A stretch of 64,000 nucleotides of DNA from positions 31,464 to 95,463 of the forward strand of contig CAZPVT010000034.1 in NCBI GenBank assembly GCA_964590395.1, written 5' to 3'. The stretch comes from an uncultured bacterium (GTDB lineage Bacteria > Hydrothermota > Tepidihabitantia > Tepidihabitantales > Tepidihabitantaceae). A model generated the notes under the pieces. The model saw only the letters and a program-made list of their open reading frames with translations. It was not told the DNA's origin and ran no database searches. Below, one piece after another: positions 2,605 to 62,720 of this stretch. The translations under genes and the position numbers were made by a program. The stretch's first letter is position 1. Every line of letters begins with the position of its first letter.

Positions 2605-3876
2605 TTAAGTTTCGCTCATCGATTCCAGAAATTCTTTATTGTCCCGGGTCAACCGCATCTTGTCAAGCACGAACTCCATTATCTCCACCGGGTTAAGTTC
2701 TGCCAGGAGTTTGCGGAGAACCCAGATCCGGTTGAGTTCAAACTCGCTCAAGAGCAGTTCCTCTTTGCGGGTGCCGGAGCGCTGGAGGTCAATTGCGGGG
2801 AAAATCCGTCGGTCAGCAAGACGGCGATCCAGGATAAGTTCCATATTACCGGTACCCTTGAACTCTTCAAAGATCACCTCATCCATTCTGGAGCCGGTTT
2901 CAATCAAGGCGGTGGCGATGACGGTCAAACTGCCCCCTTCTTCGATGTTCCGTGCCGAGCCGAAAAACTTCTTCGGCTTCTGTAGGGCATTGGAGTCCAG
3001 ACCACCGGAAAGGGTGCGACCAGAATGAGGTACAACCAGGTTGTGGGCCCGGGCAAGCCGGGTGATGGAATCCAAAAGTATTACCACATCGTGCTTGTTT
3101 TCCACTAACCGTTTTGCCTTTTCTAATACCATATCCGCAACCTGAACATGGCGCTCAGGCACCTCATCAAATGTCGAACTGATAACCTCGGCTCTGACCG
3201 AGCGTTCCATATCAGTAACTTCTTCGGGTCTTTCGTCGATCAGCAGGATGATCAGTTTCACTTCCGGGTGGTTGATGGTAATACTGTTGGCGATTTTCTG
3301 CAGCAGGACCGTCTTGCCGGCGCGGGGGGGCGACACGATCAGTCCCCGTTGACCTTTACCGATCGGAGTAAAGAGGTCAACCACCCGCATTGAAAGATCG
3401 TTCTTTTCTTTAGCCTCAAGGTGGATCCGTTCTTGCGGATAGAGTGGTGTCAGCGCGTCAAATGGGATCCGGGACCGCTCTTCGGTAAGCGATGTGCCGT
3501 TAATTGTCTCAATTTTTAAAAGGGCAAAATACCGCTCGCTGTTTTTGGGTGGCCGAGCAATGCCCGTGATTGTATCGCCGGTGCGCAGACCGAATCTTTT
3601 AATCTGGGATGGTGAGATATAGATATCGTCAGATGACGGCAGGTAACTGTACTCCGGAGAGCGGAGAAATCCGAAGCCGTCTTCCAGGATCTCCAGTACA
3701 CCGTCAACTTGAACACCACCCTCAGTACCTTCACTGGCACGGCGCCGGGATTCGGCTTCCAAGATTGACATAATCAGTCCGGGTTTTCTTTTTTCCCGAT
3801 AATCTGGTATGCCCAGTGATTCTGCAATTTCATACAATTCGGTTATTTTCTTATTCTTAAGTTCCTCTTGTGTCAT
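2605..3876 (-). CDS. rho: transcription termination factor Rho
   Basis: 423 aa with Rho N-terminal and cold-shock-like RNA-binding region and Walker A PPRAGKT. Full-length collinear Rho architecture. Confidence 0.95.
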
Positions 3877-4018: not shown

Positions 4019-4057
4019 GTAAAAATCTATGTTGCGGGAATCTGGTTTTATCGCTTG

Positions 4058-4119
4058 GAGATTGCCTCGTCGTTTCGCGCCTCGCAATGAGATTCCTGCC
4101 CGAGGCAGAGCGCAATGAC
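4058..4119 (+). repeat. two tandem units of an ATTGC...GCAATGA palindromic intergenic repeat
   Basis: gagattgcctcgtcgtttcgcgcctcgcaatga followed by gagattcctgcccgaggcagagcgcaatgac. The same core recurs at 5465, 17422 and 18587, and inverted at 18524. Confidence 0.8.
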
Positions 4120-17312: not shown

Positions 17313-17479
17313 CATTATCGCGTTCTGCCGAAGGCGGGTGGCAATTTCCCATTTTAATCGTCATTGCGTTCTGCGGAAGGCAGGTGGCAATCTCCAAGCG
17401 CAAAAACCGGTCTACACGCAAAGAGATTGCTTCGCCATCGCAATGACCGGGAGAAGGGAAAACCACTCAGAATGACGAG
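17313..17479 (+). repeat. composite intergenic repeat: two ~35-nt direct units plus one ATTGC...GCAATGAC unit
   Basis: Units 17313-17349 and 17361-17395 (cattgcgttctgcggaaggcaggtggcaatctcc-like) are tandem copies. Unit 17422-17479 matches 18587-18646. Confidence 0.8.
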
Positions 17480-18449
17480 GTGGCGGAAAGTCATTGCGCT
17501 CTGCCTGCTTATTTTGCTCTGGACATTCTGTGCCGAACAACTGCCACCGGATTATAACGGGCCAAAAAGGGAGGTGGTAATCAAACCCGGGATGTCGGTT
17601 ACCGAAGTCGCCACCATACTGAAGGAAAGGGAGATTATTAACTCCACAATCCTGTTCCAGATTTATGCCTGGCTTTATAATTACACCGCCCGGATTAAGC
17701 CCGGACGGTACCGGTTTGTTCCCGGGACCGACCCGCAACTGGTATTAAAAATGCTTGTCCGGGAGATGCCGGCTTTTATCTTTATTACCATTCCAGAGGG
17801 TGCAACCAATGAGCAGATCGCCCGGATTCTTGAGGAAAACGACATCTGTCATAGGGATTCGTTTCTTGCTGTCTGTTCAGATACCACCTTGTTCAGGAGG
17901 CTTGATATACCTTTTGCCACCGTGCAGGGCTATCTATTTCCAGAGACCTACGAGTTTCAGACCGCTACCGCACCCCAAACGGTAATCCAACGGCTGGTCA
18001 ACCAGTTCCGGGTAACATATGATAACCTGAAGCATACAAGCACGGTGAATCTTACTGAATCACAGGTGGTCATCCTTGCCTCAATCGTTGAAAAGGAGGC
18101 AAAACTGTCTGAAGAGTTTCCGATAATTGCCGGGGTTTTTCTCAACCGTTTGCGCCGTAATATCCCACTGCAGTCCTGTGCGACGGTTCAGTATATTTTA
18201 CCTGATCGGAAAGAACGGCTGACTCTTGAGGATCTGAAAACTCCATCACCTTATAACACCTATCTGCATACCGGATTACCACCCGGTCCGATCTGCAATC
18301 CCGGAAAGACCGCGCTTCAGGCGGTGCTATTTCCTGCCCGGCACGACTACCTGTTCTTTGTTGCTAAAGGCGACGGCTCGCACATTTTCTCCAGAACCCC
18401 GCAGGAACACGAAACCGCAATGAACCGGTTCAAGCGAACTAATCGCTGA
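17472..18449 (+). CDS. mltG: endolytic murein transglycosylase MltG (YceG-like)
   Basis: TM anchor WRKVIALCLLILLW, YceG domain and the conserved LPPGPICNPG motif. The ATG at 17472 lies inside the repeat unit (gaATGacgag). Confidence 0.85.
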   Translation: MTRWRKVIALCLLILLWTFCAEQLPPDYNGPKREVVIKPGMSVTEVATILKEREIINSTILFQIYAWLYNYTARIKPGRYRFVPGTDPQLVLKMLVREMPAFIFITIPEGATNEQIARILEENDICHRDSFLAVCSDTTLFRRLDIPFATVQGYLFPETYEFQTATAPQTVIQRLVNQFRVTYDNLKHTSTVNLTESQVVILASIVEKEAKLSEEFPIIAGVFLNRLRRNIPLQSCATVQYILPDRKERLTLEDLKTPSPYNTYLHTGLPPGPICNPGKTALQAVLFPARHDYLFFVAKGDGSHIFSRTPQEHETAMNRFKRTNR

Positions 18450-18478
18450 ATTCCGCATTTAGCAAAAATCAGCTGTTT

Positions 18479-18692
18479 CGGAATGACAAAAAGGACATGT
18501 CATTGCGCGGTCCTCCTCCTTTTGTCATTGCGAGGAGCGTTAGCGACGAAGCAATCTAAAAGCGGATAAATTGGCATCACCCGCAGAGAGATTGCTTCGC
18601 TACCGCTCGCAATGACCGGGGAAGGGAGGCGGTTCGGAATGACGAGTTGAGGGGAAGTCAGTGTATTCTGCGGAAGACAGGTGGCAATCTAC
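18479..18692 (+). repeat. composite intergenic repeat with an inverted pair of ATTGC...GCAAT cores
   Basis: 18524-18557 (gtcattgcgaggagcgttagcgacgaagcaatct) is the inverted copy of 18589-18616. Unit 18587-18646 matches 17422-17479, and 18661-18692 matches 17361-17395. Confidence 0.8.
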
Positions 18693-18779
18693 AACACTGG
18701 GATTAACCGGTATCTTTTAACTTAATGGTTAAATTTCGGTAACTGTTTGAAAAGTTGTGTTTTATATTATGGATGATAT

Positions 18780-19097
18780 TTGAAACCCTGCCTAGTGGGC
18801 AGTATCGGGGAGGGTATCTGTAATGGTCTTGGACCGGGTTATGAGATGGGTATCTTTCGGGGTTATGGTTGTGGCAACAGGGCTGGTGTTGTATCGGGTT
18901 TATATTGCGGTTGGGTTTTCGGTGCCGGGCATGGTTTAGAACGGAGTTTTGAGGAGGGTTAACAGTTGGGTTATGGTGAGGGTTATCATTGCGGTATGGC
19001 TAATGGTCTTATCCGGGGTTCTGTCAACGGTACGGTTAGGAGTTGGGATAACCGATACTTTAACCGGTTATTGACAAAACTGATTTACGGTTTATAA
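18780..19097 (+). other. 12-nt phased GGT array, a glycine-zipper-like reading frame with one in-frame TAA (cryptic small ORFs or pseudogene)
   Basis: In the frame opening at 18780, every 4th codon from codon 12 to codon 84 is GGT (17 of 19), GGC (1) or AGT (1). TAA at 18960-18962 interrupts it. GAGGAGG (18951-18957) plus 8 nt plus TTG (18966) could restart translation. Confidence 0.4.
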
Positions 19098-19119: not shown

Positions 19120-20457
19120 ATGAAACCGACAGTTGTCGTCTGCTTGGTTATGCTGGCTGTTACCCTATGCTTCAGCCAGTATCAGTTTGGCGTGGTCTGC
19201 TCAACCGACAACCGTTTCGCAACCGGGCCCAACAACAGTCACAAACTGGCATTCAGTTCTGAGATACTTGACCCGGCTCGAGATACCGTAACACTGGTCT
19301 TTCAGTCTCAGGGGAGTATCTATATCTGTTTTTCCGGTAACAGCGCTCCTAATCCGTGGTCAAGACCAGTTGCTTACTATCCGGGTAACGAACCGGCAAT
19401 CGCCTATGGAAGAGATGGTAACCGTCATCTGGTCTGGGTTATGATGGATACCATCACCCGCGCATTGAATGTCTTCTATCGGGTGCTTGAGTACCGGATG
19501 TTGCCAATAAATGTCAGTTTTTCGGGTAATAACTGTCATTATCCGGATGTGTTTGCCGATGAGCAGGGTGTCGCCCATATCGTGTGGGCGGAGTCTTTGT
19601 CCGGCAGTAGTCAGATTTACTACCAGAAGGCGGATGTCAATGGACGGATTGGTGAAAGGTTTCTTGTTTCCAGTAGCGGTGGCTATTGCCTATCCCCGTC
19701 AATTGAAAAGTTTGGCGATACGATTACTGTGATCTGGCAGGAGTATGAGCCGAGCCAACCCCCGCCGTATAGCATTGTGTGCCGGCGTCAGGCTAACGGT
19801 GCCTGGTTGTCAGAGGAGATTCTTGCCCAGAGCAGTGAACCTCTGTCCCATCCAGCGCTGGATTTCTCTCCGGGCAATGAAGGGATTTCTGCCTGCTGGG
19901 ATTTTAACAATGGGGGGAATCTTGAGGTGCGATTTTACGGTGGGAATCCGGGCGGTGGTTTTTCAACACCCGGTGCTTCCACCGCGCCGGTTATGGCAAC
20001 AGTGGGTGGTGTCTGGTCGTATTACTTCTGGGAGGAGGAGTCAGCCGGGGTGAAAGATATCTACAGCCATTTCTACTACTTTATGAGCGGCTGGTCGCGT
20101 GGTTCACTGCGCCAGTTGTTTATGCTCAACGAACCGGTTTATGCTCCTAACTGCCTCGGGGCGCTGGTGGTCTGGACACAGGGTGAATCTGCACCTTATA
20201 AGGTGATGTGGGGATTTTTCGGTTATCCGATCAGCATCGCTGAACCGGTCGAGCCGAGAAATGCCAGGCTGAAAAGCATGATCGCCAGCAATCTCCTGAA
20301 AACACCAGATGCAGATCAGTCATCATATCTTCTGGACATCACCGGTAGAAAGGTGATGAGAGTGCAGGCCGGCACCAACGATATCAGCAGAGTCAAGCCC
20401 GGGGTTTATTATCTGCAGACCGGCAATTACCGGGAACGGCTAACCGTTATCCGGTAG
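19120..20457 (+). CDS. secreted beta-propeller-like repeat protein with a T9SS-type C-terminal domain
   Basis: Signal peptide MKPTVVVCLVMLAVTLCFSQ. Recurring ..H.VW.. blades (HLVWVMMD, AHIVWAES, ITVIWQEY, ALVVWTQG). C-terminus reads YLLDITGRKVM...VKPGVYYLQ. Confidence 0.65.
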   Translation: MKPTVVVCLVMLAVTLCFSQYQFGVVCSTDNRFATGPNNSHKLAFSSEILDPARDTVTLVFQSQGSIYICFSGNSAPNPWSRPVAYYPGNEPAIAYGRDGNRHLVWVMMDTITRALNVFYRVLEYRMLPINVSFSGNNCHYPDVFADEQGVAHIVWAESLSGSSQIYYQKADVNGRIGERFLVSSSGGYCLSPSIEKFGDTITVIWQEYEPSQPPPYSIVCRRQANGAWLSEEILAQSSEPLSHPALDFSPGNEGISACWDFNNGGNLEVRFYGGNPGGGFSTPGASTAPVMATVGGVWSYYFWEEESAGVKDIYSHFYYFMSGWSRGSLRQLFMLNEPVYAPNCLGALVVWTQGESAPYKVMWGFFGYPISIAEPVEPRNARLKSMIASNLLKTPDADQSSYLLDITGRKVMRVQAGTNDISRVKPGVYYLQTGNYRERLTVIR

Positions 20458-45114: not shown

Positions 45115-45147
45115 CACGGTCTCCATTTAAGTTTATTTGTCATTACC

Positions 45148-45219
45148 CTGGGGCGGAAGGACTCGAACCTTCACGACAGGATCCAAAGTCCTGTGTCCTA
45201 CCAGTTAGACAACGCCCCA
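45148..45219 (-). tRNA. tRNA-Gln (anticodon UUG)
   Basis: A hand-folded 72-nt cloverleaf: TGGGGCG TT GTCT AACTGGTA GGAC A CAGGA CTTTGGA TCCTG TCGT GAAGG TTCGAGT CCTTC CGCCCCA G. It has the U1-A72 pair and G73 typical of bacterial tRNA-Gln. CCA is not encoded. Confidence 0.85.
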
Positions 45220-45227
45220 AACTTTGC

Positions 45228-62120: not shown

Positions 62121-62333
62121 CCTGACCTCCTTTATTTATACTTATCAATGTTCGGTATAACATCGGTTTGTAACCCAGTGCTATTAAAATCCAGATACTA
62201 AGAGTTAGTGGTTAGTATTACTCTTTACTATCAGTAATTAACTCAACCAATTCCTCAATTTTAATTTTACTATTTCAGGACTGCCTGTCAAGTTTTTCTT
62301 TTTATGTATTGGACCGGCGGATAAACAAAAGCA

Positions 62334-62720
62334 GGCAGGCGGGTCTGTAAGCCGGGTTCTGTACTCCTTGCGGAGCGACGGTCATTTCTCTGGGATGCAC
62401 AGTTACCCGTGCACCTCAAGCAACCTACCCGGGAATGATAACGGGCCGGGCAAGCCCTCTTCCCTGTTTGGTTTTGCACCAGGCAGGGTTTGTCCATCCG
62501 GTATGTCACCATACCGGATAGTGCGCTCTTACCGCACTATTTCACCCTTACCAGCCACCGGTAACCTCAACCCGGTACCTGGCGGTATGGTTTCTGTGAC
62601 ACTTTCCGTCTGTTTGCGGTCTCCCGCAAACAGCCTCGCGGTTAGCGAGTGCCTTGCCCTTTGGTGCCCGGACTTTCCTCGGTCCGTTTTACTGGACCGC
62701 GACCGTCCGACCCGCCTGCC
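62334..62720 (-). ncRNA. rnpB: RNase P RNA, bacterial type A
   Basis: The minus strand contains GAGGAAAGTCCGGGC near the 5' end and ACAGAACCCGGCTTA near the 3' end. A 12-bp P1 stem is formed by GGCAGGCGGGTC (62720-62709) and GACCCGCCTGCC (62345-62334). Length 387 nt. Confidence 0.9.

Follow-up and report, generated by a model that had tools for sequence, protein, structure and literature searches.

A phase-locked array of degenerate 12-nt units upstream of strong promoters in uncultivated WOR-3-type bacteria

Introduction

Contiguous direct repeats of fixed period that lie beside a promoter and are bound by a protein filament are exemplified by tubC, whose seven 12-base-pair (bp) repeats are recognised by TubR, and by stbS of R388, where StbA recognises ten 9-bp repeats with 2-bp spacers, i.e. 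an 11-bp spacing (bioRxiv 10.1101/2022.04.29.490116). The proposed mode of recognition of such iteron and centromere arrays is cooperative, with the repeats acting as a rigid lattice on which a superhelical nucleoprotein filament is built (bioRxiv 10.1101/2022.04.29.490116). Here we describe an array of phased GGT triplets in the genome of an uncultured bacterium of the Hydrothermota (GCA_964590395.1, contig CAZPVT010000034.1, positions 31,464 to 95,463). The whole stretch analysed, 64,000 nucleotides (nt) long, is called the window, and coordinates refer to it unless a different contig is named. The array occupies 18804-19043 of the plus strand and consists of 20 head-to-tail units, each exactly 12 nt long, with the phased triplet at unit positions 10-12.

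Like the tubC/TubR, stbS/StbA and parC/ParR sites, the array is a contiguous series of direct repeats of fixed short period (also 12 bp in tubC) directly upstream of a promoter. Iterons come as 4-20 repeats in which most of the unit is conserved, whereas only GGT and weak flanking preferences are conserved here. Unlike the iteron systems, this array has no adjoining genes for a cognate binding protein or for partition, is chromosomal, and is found upstream of a secreted-protein gene and of adk; its binding is only predicted.

A second point of comparison is TRAP, a ring protein that binds RNA carrying 9-11 GAG/UAG triplets separated by 2-3 nt spacers. TRAP sites share with the array a conserved triplet, spacers of free sequence, many repeats and a lack of secondary structure. 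They differ from it in their period (5-6 versus 12), in a variable rather than invariant spacing, in repeat number (20 in the array) and in their location within a leader rather than upstream of a promoter, and no gene resembling TRAP is known in the present setting.

Comparison of three copies of the array shows that, as far as sequence alone can tell, it is non-coding, and that GGT and its register are constrained at the nucleotide level. Selection keeps a short core (GGT with weaker flanking preferences), the exact spacing and the number of units. Together with a 110-nt leader, the array forms a module of ~360 nt that is present at no fewer than two unrelated intergenic sites of WOR-3-type genomes. 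An earlier note on this DNA had left three options, namely two small Gly/Cys-rich peptides, a decayed glycine-zipper gene, or a non-coding phased element upstream of the promoter at 19071; the comparison of copies supports the last of these.

Structure of the array

The triplets that close the 20 units are GGT in 17 cases, GGC in one (18873) and AGT in two (18945 and 19041). The AGT at 19041 is one unit beyond the register originally described, and re-reading of the frame that opens at 18780 confirmed GGT 17, GGC 1 and AGT 1 among the 19 codons 12, 16 ... 84. There is an additional in-phase unit at 18792-18803, closing with AGT (18801), which brings the total to 21 if it is counted. The unit consensus, TTKGNTNRGGGT, holds ~6 bits per unit, mostly in positions 10-12, and identity among the nine spacer bases of the units is 31%, compared to 27% expected from composition.

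A sliding count of GGT at 12-nt spacing reaches 17/20 at the array and at most 5/20 elsewhere in the 64 kb on either strand. When any triplet phased at 12 nt was sought in ~700 kb of other bacterial loci, the scan returned only the window array and its two relatives described below. No second copy of the array is found in ~71 kb of the window's genome (the 64 kb and a further 7.4 kb of the source contig). The phasing is also far from ordinary codon usage: GGT makes up 35% of the Gly codons in window genes and 62% in the highest single gene, so that 17 GGT among 18 phased Gly codons has P ~2e-7 at 35% usage and ~2e-3 at the 62% ceiling.

The plus strand of the array is G/T-rich and C-poor (G 92, T 80, A 40 and C 28 of 240), and no long open reading frame (ORF) runs on the minus strand, both as first noted. 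Tandem Repeats Finder does not score the array, its sole report being a 2-copy 24-nt repeat, and no higher-order repeat or periodicity was found in it. Tandem amplification of the minisatellite type is ruled out by the dissimilar units and the absent higher-order periodicity. GGT phased at 12 nt is common in coding repeats of phages and giant viruses. The top 25 viral GGT arrays, however, have spacers that are 42-90% alike and lie in long ORFs, whereas the spacers here are at chance level and the array is left unscored by the repeat finder. A generic scan of viral contigs for 6 x GGT likewise returned low-complexity coding repeats only.

Copies in other genomes

We found two further copies of the array, one at an orthologous locus and one at an unrelated site. 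The first, L205 (GCA_053497075.1), was the only match when 5.8 billion protein clusters were searched with the read-through protein of frame 1, the frame in which GGT encodes Gly. The matching protein, P0001 (111 aa), is encoded directly upstream of the orthologue of P445, the gene to the right of the window array; the left neighbour differs and is an LVIVD-repeat gene on the other strand. The second, L210 (Ga0209102_1000001, a 504-kb Joint Genome Institute (JGI) contig), was found by a metagenome scan seeded with the two frame-1 translations. Here the array lies between the alanine racemase gene (alr, minus strand) on one side and adenylate kinase (adk)-map-infA (plus strand) on the other.

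The three copies have a common 12-nt register with no insertion or deletion (indel) across the 240-nt array and the same final unit. The phased triplets of L210 are GGT 17, GGC 2 and GGG 1. Identity among the copies is ~90% over the leader and the first eight units.

Contigs of the window's species were recovered from several samples and are identical, with the exception of strain L202, which has two single-nucleotide polymorphisms (SNPs) in 7.3 kb. Both are in the intergenic region between mltG, the left-hand neighbour, and P445: one at 18709 and one in a spacer at 18820.

In L001, the closest species in GTDB, the mltG-P445 gap is only ~150 nt and holds no array; four genomes with a P445 that is 57-61% identical have 100-320 nt upstream of it, also without the array. 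Because L001 and these four P445-bearing relatives lack it, the array is a lineage-restricted addition. Viral contigs, phage and plasmid collections and another 7.4 kb of the source contig contained no more copies, nor did exact look-ups of the possible ORF products reveal any. A metagenome scan seeded with P445 had no matches, and a three-frame concatenated profile search returned zero matches, though it missed the known P0001 and P0047 ORFs as well.

Two Logan assemblies, L203 and L204 (SRR10519663 and SRR5216256), independently break at window position 18865, inside the array. The break could reflect strain polymorphism or trouble with sequencing or assembly in a G-rich tract.

Conservation of GGT and register

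Between the window and L210, over 18900-19043, the phased bases are identical at 32/36 positions (89%), against 50/108 (46%; chance 0.30) for the spacers (Fisher P = 3e-6). The same phased-versus-spacer test of L210 against L205 gives P = 3e-4. In the 12 units from 18900 onward, the wobble T at the phased sites is kept at 10/12 and 12/12, the value for L210 being 10/12. That the wobble T persists in 10 of the 12 diverged L210 units points to selection on all three GGT bases and on the spacing. The earlier proposal that the near-exclusive use of GGT reflects constraint at the nucleotide level is thereby upheld, by the L210 comparison and by the control genes presented below. Related genomes also separate frame conservation from nucleotide periodicity: the 12-nt register is kept, and no frame stays open in all three copies.

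The array of L210 with its downstream flank is strongly biased toward G and T (G 130, T 110, A 39, C 18). Simple deamination bias was rejected as a source of this richness, since only 21/62 changes are A>G or C>T.

Tests for coding

In-array stop codons in frame 1 number one in the window, none in L205 and three in L210. Frame 2 has one, one and two, respectively, and frame 3 has at least six, at least six and at least two. The single in-frame TAA of the window (18960-18962) is as first read, together with GAGGAGG at 18951-18957 and TTG at 18966. L205 has GAA in place of the TAA, and the frame-1 stops of L210 are TAG codons at three other places. Stop-codon reassignment was considered and rejected: ordinary genes of these genomes use each of TAG, TAA and TGA as a stop, and adk of L210 ends with TAG.

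Substitutions between the window and L205 are distributed 19/16/20 over the codon positions, and the ratio of nonsynonymous to synonymous rates (dN/dS) is 0.8-1.1 in each of the three frames. Gene callers disagree on the array. NCBI annotates frame 1 in L205, JGI annotates a 38-aa ORF in frame 2 in the window's contig, and nothing is called in L210. Frames are open in the array because the composition is A-poor and G/T-rich and stop codons need A; column shuffling leaves frame 1 open in 2-4% of trials. More generally, in A-poor, G/T-rich DNA frames open by chance, so that gene callers and database searches yield "hypothetical proteins" from elements of this kind. A glycine periodicity of four codons is therefore no proof of a glycine-zipper protein.

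Based on these results, the two Gly/Cys-rich peptides suggested earlier find no support. The TAA that would separate them and both proposed starts are not conserved, L205 reads through, the stops of L210 are elsewhere, and dN/dS is ~1. Scans of the candidate peptides against Pfam and NCBIfam contain no bacteriocin, microcin or RiPP (ribosomally synthesised and post-translationally modified peptide) precursor family, and there is no gene for maturation, export or immunity (YcaO, ABC transporter) among the neighbours (mltG, P445, DsrE-like and ADH in the window; alr, adk and map in L210). Moreover, Cys precedes Gly three times (GCG, YCG, HCG) and not four times as was stated.

The second option was a decayed gene for a small GxxxG-repeat (GX3, glycine-zipper) protein, intact in L205 and a pseudogene in the window and in L210. 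Known proteins of this kind, FliH/YscL and the deca-GX3 proteins Yae1/Lto1 (Yae1_N, PF09811), resemble frame 1 in having Gly at every fourth residue over ~20 repeats. In FliH, as in frame 1, a hydrophobic or aromatic residue follows straight after Gly (PMC2674601). The frame-1 pattern is indeed the G-hydrophobic-x-x of FliH-type repeats, where x1 is preferentially Tyr or Leu (PMC2674601). The 12-nt period is divisible by 3, there are no indels, and the phased triplet encodes Gly in the only open frame of L205, which begins with ATG, spans 111 codons and terminates within the -10 box. The absence of stops from the L205 array has P = 0.016 under column shuffling. A HMMER search of 1.84 billion representative proteins matches FliH and Yae1_N-type GxxxG-repeat proteins at E 1e-5 to 1e-4, along with two other repetitive proteins, all of these being low-complexity matches. 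The missing Shine-Dalgarno (SD) sequence is not decisive either, as an obvious SD precedes only 37% of the window genes.

Nonetheless, we consider such a gene unlikely. Stops interrupt the frame in the window and in L210, the window copy lacks a start, dN/dS gives no sign of purifying selection, no frame is called in L210 and the frame called by JGI in the window's contig is a different one. Low-complexity matches aside, P0001 has no homologue in the 5.8 billion clusters or the 1.84 billion representatives. No intact homologous gene, which would have made the window copy a plain pseudogene, was found among 15 billion proteins. No profile is matched above threshold: the Pfam scan of the candidate peptides gives no match (for P0001 at E<=10 only Tim17, E 0.75), and the sole NCBIfam match is FliH, with 19.4 bits versus a cut-off of 192. 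AlphaFold on P0001 was uninformative (predicted local distance difference test score, pLDDT, 43).

Above all, the wobble T is kept across saturated spacers, unlike in control GX3 genes. A FliH gene of 33 units has spacer identity 0.41 and phased codons GGT 17, GGA 8, GGC 4 and GGG 4. For P0006 (45 units) the corresponding values are 0.38 and GGA 19, GGT 13, GGG 7 and GGC 6. The only control with one Gly codon is P0005, a freshly amplified repeat with spacer identity 0.73. The combination of chance-level spacers and a single triplet in the array argues that it is not a product of protein-level constraint. The glycine-zipper option, to which the intact frame in L205 lends support, leaves the conserved wobble T unexplained and is a minority one.

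Translational codon optimisation was also rejected as a source of the GGT preference, since the other codons are non-optimal (TAT, TTT and CGG dominate, and ATC appears instead of ATT) and GGT usage in individual genes tops out at 62%. Two phage contigs, L104 and L120, contain coding arrays with Gly at every fourth residue (GNVTGNVTGNTAGTHTG...), GGT at 17-18/20 phased sites and spacer identity of 0.53-0.54; they were picked by their GGT pattern and are therefore biased as controls.

Module and flanking features

The array lies within the 670-nt gap between mltG, which ends at 18449, and the P445 gene. The window derives from a bacterium of candidate division WOR-3: its MltG is 65-76% identical to MltG of WOR-3 metagenome-assembled genomes (MAGs), and the gene order lysS-ruvX-mltG ... 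dsrE-like-adh is common to the window and to these MAGs. The features of the region are as follows; REP and MITE stand for repetitive extragenic palindromic sequence and miniature inverted-repeat transposable element, and T9SS for type IX secretion system.

18478-18689, no strand: REP/MITE-like palindromic repeats, GTCATTGCG...CGCAATGAC and TTCTGCGGAAGACAGGTGGCAATCT, with inverted repeats I4 and I8-I10
18690-18803, plus strand: leader of the module, conserved in both genomic contexts (three-way alignment A4)
18703-18732, plus strand: leader hairpin TTAACCG / TGGTTAA, read from the sequence
18766-18794, minus strand: leftward promoter-like site TAGGCA-17-CATAAT, pointing away from the array
18788-18802, plus strand: small hairpin CTGCCT-AGT-GGGCAG, from the consensus fold of the three copies
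18804-19043, plus strand: the array, 20 x 12-nt units
18960-18962, plus strand: TAA in the frame that reads GGT as Gly, directly after a phased GGT
19044-19070, plus strand: junction of 27 nt from the last unit to the -35 box, placed by alignment with the array-less L001
19071-19098, plus strand: sigma-70 promoter of P445, TTGACA-16-TATAAT, outside the module
19120-20457, plus strand: P445, a secreted protein of 445 aa with a T9SS-type C-terminal tail, from a WOR-3-restricted family

All three copies have the same order: REP-like repeats, a leader of ~110 nt, the array, 23-27 nt, and the -35 box of a strong promoter. In each, the G-rich strand is the sense strand of the right-hand gene. The promoter is TTGACA-16-TATAAT in the window and in L205, and TTGACT-16-TAGAAT at 3285-3312 in L210; the gap from the array to the -35 box is 27 nt in the window and 23 nt in L210. 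The promoter at 19071 had been proposed from the start, and it proved to be a perfect consensus match. It is retained in array-less relatives, and alignment with L001 places the resumption of the native sequence upstream of P445 at ~19052. Homologues of P445 match PF18962 or bear the name T9SS type A sorting domain protein.

The leader is identical at 81/104 positions between the window and L210, and that of L205 has a 16-nt deletion and a 10-nt insertion. In the hairpin at 18703-18732, one arm of which is deleted in L205, the single varying pair is the closing pair 18709:18726, which is G.T in the window, A-T in strain L202 and C-G in L210. The small hairpin at 18788-18802 has two one-sided changes, seen as G.U when the plus strand is folded and as C.A when the minus strand is; they are weak evidence. 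Consensus folding of the three leaders revealed no compensatory pairs. The variants of the two hairpins give a hint, of slight weight, that the plus strand may be read as RNA.

The -10 of the leftward site overlaps a weak plus-strand TATATT. At the equivalent place, L210 has TGGACA-17-CATAAT (10/12), plus TTAACT-18-TATATT on the plus strand, and in L205 the leftward site is absent. Thus in the window and in L210 the array fills the space between two outward-facing promoters, of which the leftward one is promoter-like.

REP/MITE-like repeats lie to the left of the module in each of the three copies, and are also found without it. In the window, the family (GTCATTGCGAGG...CGCAATGAC and TTCTGCGGAAGRCAGGTGGCAATCT) is represented at 18478-18689, 17323-17504 and 4047-4090. 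A long hairpin within these repeats, at 18524-18616, is an insertion relative to L205. The longest ORF of mltG (17364-18449, 361 aa, TTG start) begins inside a REP-like repeat, and the JGI call is 325 aa long; the first ~36 codons of the longest ORF are probably untranslated.

A ~24-nt imperfect direct repeat (TGGGATTAACCGGTATCTTTTAAC, TGGGATAACCGATACTTTAAC) at 18697-18721 and 19043-19066 brackets the leader and the array in the window. Its right copy overlaps native sequence upstream of P445, and no such repeat is apparent in L210. Just ahead of the P445 -35 box, at 19059-19068, lies a perfect 10-bp palindrome, TAACCGGTTA, which is not kept in L205 or L001.

Possible modes of action

A codon register and a rigid duplex lattice are the two constraints that call for an exact period, and as the codon register is excluded, we put the duplex lattice first. 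We tentatively propose, at less than even confidence and from analysis of the locus, that the array is a cooperative protein-binding lattice on duplex DNA that acts on one or both of the flanking promoters. The array would function as duplex DNA, as a rigid lattice for a putative DNA-binding protein. This protein would polymerise cooperatively, one subunit or dimer for each 12 bp; with ~51 degrees of rotation per unit, seven units would correspond to eight helical turns. The resulting nucleoprotein filament, held between two outward-facing promoters, may repress, activate or insulate them. Such a mode of working would be akin to that of iteron, operator and centromere arrays (tubC, parC, stbS). 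A flexible single-stranded RNA can be bound without exact spacing, as in the case of Rho, which tolerates linkers of 9-13 nt (PMC6144790).

Several observations weigh against the lattice. No gene for a candidate binding protein adjoins any of the three copies. Only 3-4 of the 12 unit positions are informative, and the information content per unit is far below that of known iterons. The 4-nt difference in the distance to the -35 box means that there is no fixed helical phasing with RNA polymerase. As the known copies number three and their contexts two, a common orientation and similar distances (23 versus 27 nt) could have arisen by chance, and the strong strand asymmetry hints at a function as a single strand. 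In addition, between the window and L205 the phased triplets (53/60) are no better kept than the spacers (153/180), although the L210 comparison covers far more divergence than this one, and two GGTs have disappeared from L205, whose frame 1 stayed open.

Strand asymmetry is also what favours a sense RNA. A G/U-rich transcript with 20 phased GGU, made from a weak leader promoter or by read-through, might offer an RNA-binding protein a multivalent scaffold or sponge, or serve as a regulatory leader of the downstream gene. The variants in the two leader hairpins pair on the plus strand (G.U, A-U, C-G) and partly mismatch on the minus strand, L210 has its TTAACT-18-TATATT on the plus strand just upstream, and the two contexts agree in orientation relative to the downstream gene. 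A transcript of this kind is improbable, though. There is no terminator, and the upstream promoter is under the scan threshold in the window and in L205. In Rfam 15 at E<=10 there are only chance matches to microRNA and small nucleolar RNA models, far under the gathering scores. Neither strand of the array folds better than shuffled sequence (z-scores -0.5 and -0.6). Known sponge RNAs of the CsrB/RsmZ type present GGA in hairpin loops at irregular spacing, and exact spacing is unexpected on a flexible RNA. As a separate check by hand, the elemental RNA-polymerase pause consensus (G-10 Y-1 G+1) was compared with the unit profile and rejected as a mismatch.

The opposite strand invites another explanation, in which an antisense RNA with CC once per 12 nt, C-rich, G-poor and unstructured, would act as a Rho-loading ladder. 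This would be an idealised Rho utilisation (rut) site that halts leftward (antisense or divergent) transcription from the strongly expressed right-hand gene. Minus-strand RNA of the array contains 38-47% C and 6-12% G, forms a [(YC)N9-13]n chain with n=19-20, and folds weakly (-52.6 kcal/mol, whereas the plus strand reaches -105.2 kcal/mol). The window itself carries a gene for a canonical Rho (2605-3876, minus strand). Rut sites are similarly C-rich, G-poor and unstructured, and their YC spacing fits the crown of the Rho hexamer; Rho terminators are best predicted by regular 5'-YC dimers together with C>G skew, and linkers of 9-13 nt bridge neighbouring Rho subunits (PMC6144790). Natural rut sites, however, are irregular and ~70-80 nt long, whereas the array is 240 nt long, strictly periodic and conserved in the third base, and its minus-strand transcript is putative. 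As variable linkers are tolerated, Rho would not need a strict 12-nt spacing over 60 units in three copies. Nor do we know of a role in Rho recognition for the conserved A on the 5' side of CC, which corresponds to T in GGT. The promoter scan revealed none that would direct leftward transcription across the array, and the site at its left edge points away. A Rho ladder is therefore as poor a prospect, in our judgement, as the sense RNA.

The Rho in question is a canonical protein of 423 aa, with Rho_N, Rho_RNA_bind and ATPase domains and no large N-terminal insertion. Its gene is followed by rpmE and prfA, just past the left end of the window.

Non-B DNA would make use of the many GGG runs and the near absence of C, through G-quadruplexes, stabilisation of R-loops, or a sink for negative supercoils between divergent promoters. 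The position between outward-facing promoters would suit such a role, and L210 has G4Hunter scores of 1.10 (mean) and 1.88 (maximum), the criterion being above ~1.2. It is nonetheless very unlikely: no copy contains the canonical quadruplex motif (G3+N1-7), the window has a G4Hunter mean of only 0.74 (local maximum 1.36), and non-B structures require neither an exact 12-nt register nor a conserved T.

Finally, the module might be a selfish or neutral repeat, that is, a non-autonomous mobile or recombining element phased for its own propagation (e.g. by multiple contacts with a transposase or recombinase), or else a functionless relic. It is present at two unrelated sites, always beside REP/MITE-like repeats, and is missing from the orthologous site of the next relatives. 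Both strain SNPs of L202 fall in the intergenic region that holds it. The module also lies in a pocket of window-L205 divergence, with 5-15 differences per 60 nt versus 0-2 in most of the P445 body, and the imperfect direct repeat brackets it in the window. We regard this as rather unlikely, because terminal inverted repeats, a transposase and a second copy in ~71 kb are all lacking, the bracketing repeat is not seen in L210, and a pure relic would lose GGT across saturated spacers.

On a tentative overall reading, the locus would represent a previously undescribed class of non-coding element, seen here for the first time and in an uncultivated phylum. The class would be defined by ~20 phase-locked, degenerate 12-nt units in which essentially only the GGT anchor and the register are selected. 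The units would be carried on a ~360-nt module able to occupy different intergenic sites by strong promoters, and read by a putative oligomerising nucleic-acid-binding protein. No known family fits the array. It departs in a tested defining feature from GX3 proteins, from bacteriocin precursors, from Rfam families and from minisatellites, and it has some features in common with iteron arrays and rut sites. If the reading holds, a conserved triplet at invariant 12-nt spacing over 240 nt would be a recognition code of no described bacterial DNA or RNA element. It would point to a filament- or ring-forming nucleic-acid-binding protein in WOR-3, a phylum without a cultured model, and could reveal how very strong promoters are controlled or insulated.

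Additional observations

Divergence between the window and L205 (P445 at 19120-20457 and L205:1188-2519) at four-fold sites is mosaic, with 1.3% in a 462-aa gene, 7% in P445, 16% in adh and 30% in the dsrE-like gene. Within P445, hot pockets are found at the 5' end (signal peptide), at ~19800 and at the 3' end. The mosaic pattern suggests, on the basis of these alignments, either recombination or diversifying selection on the P445 surface protein. L205 also has an extra methyltransferase gene (L205:2567-3217) between P445 and the dsrE-like gene, where the window shows a 538-nt alignment gap; L206 has this gene too.

The sole Rfam/ARAGORN matches in the window, with Rfam at gathering threshold, are a class A RNase P RNA (288 bits) at 62332-62718 and a tRNA-Gln(TTG) at 45147-45220, both on the minus strand.

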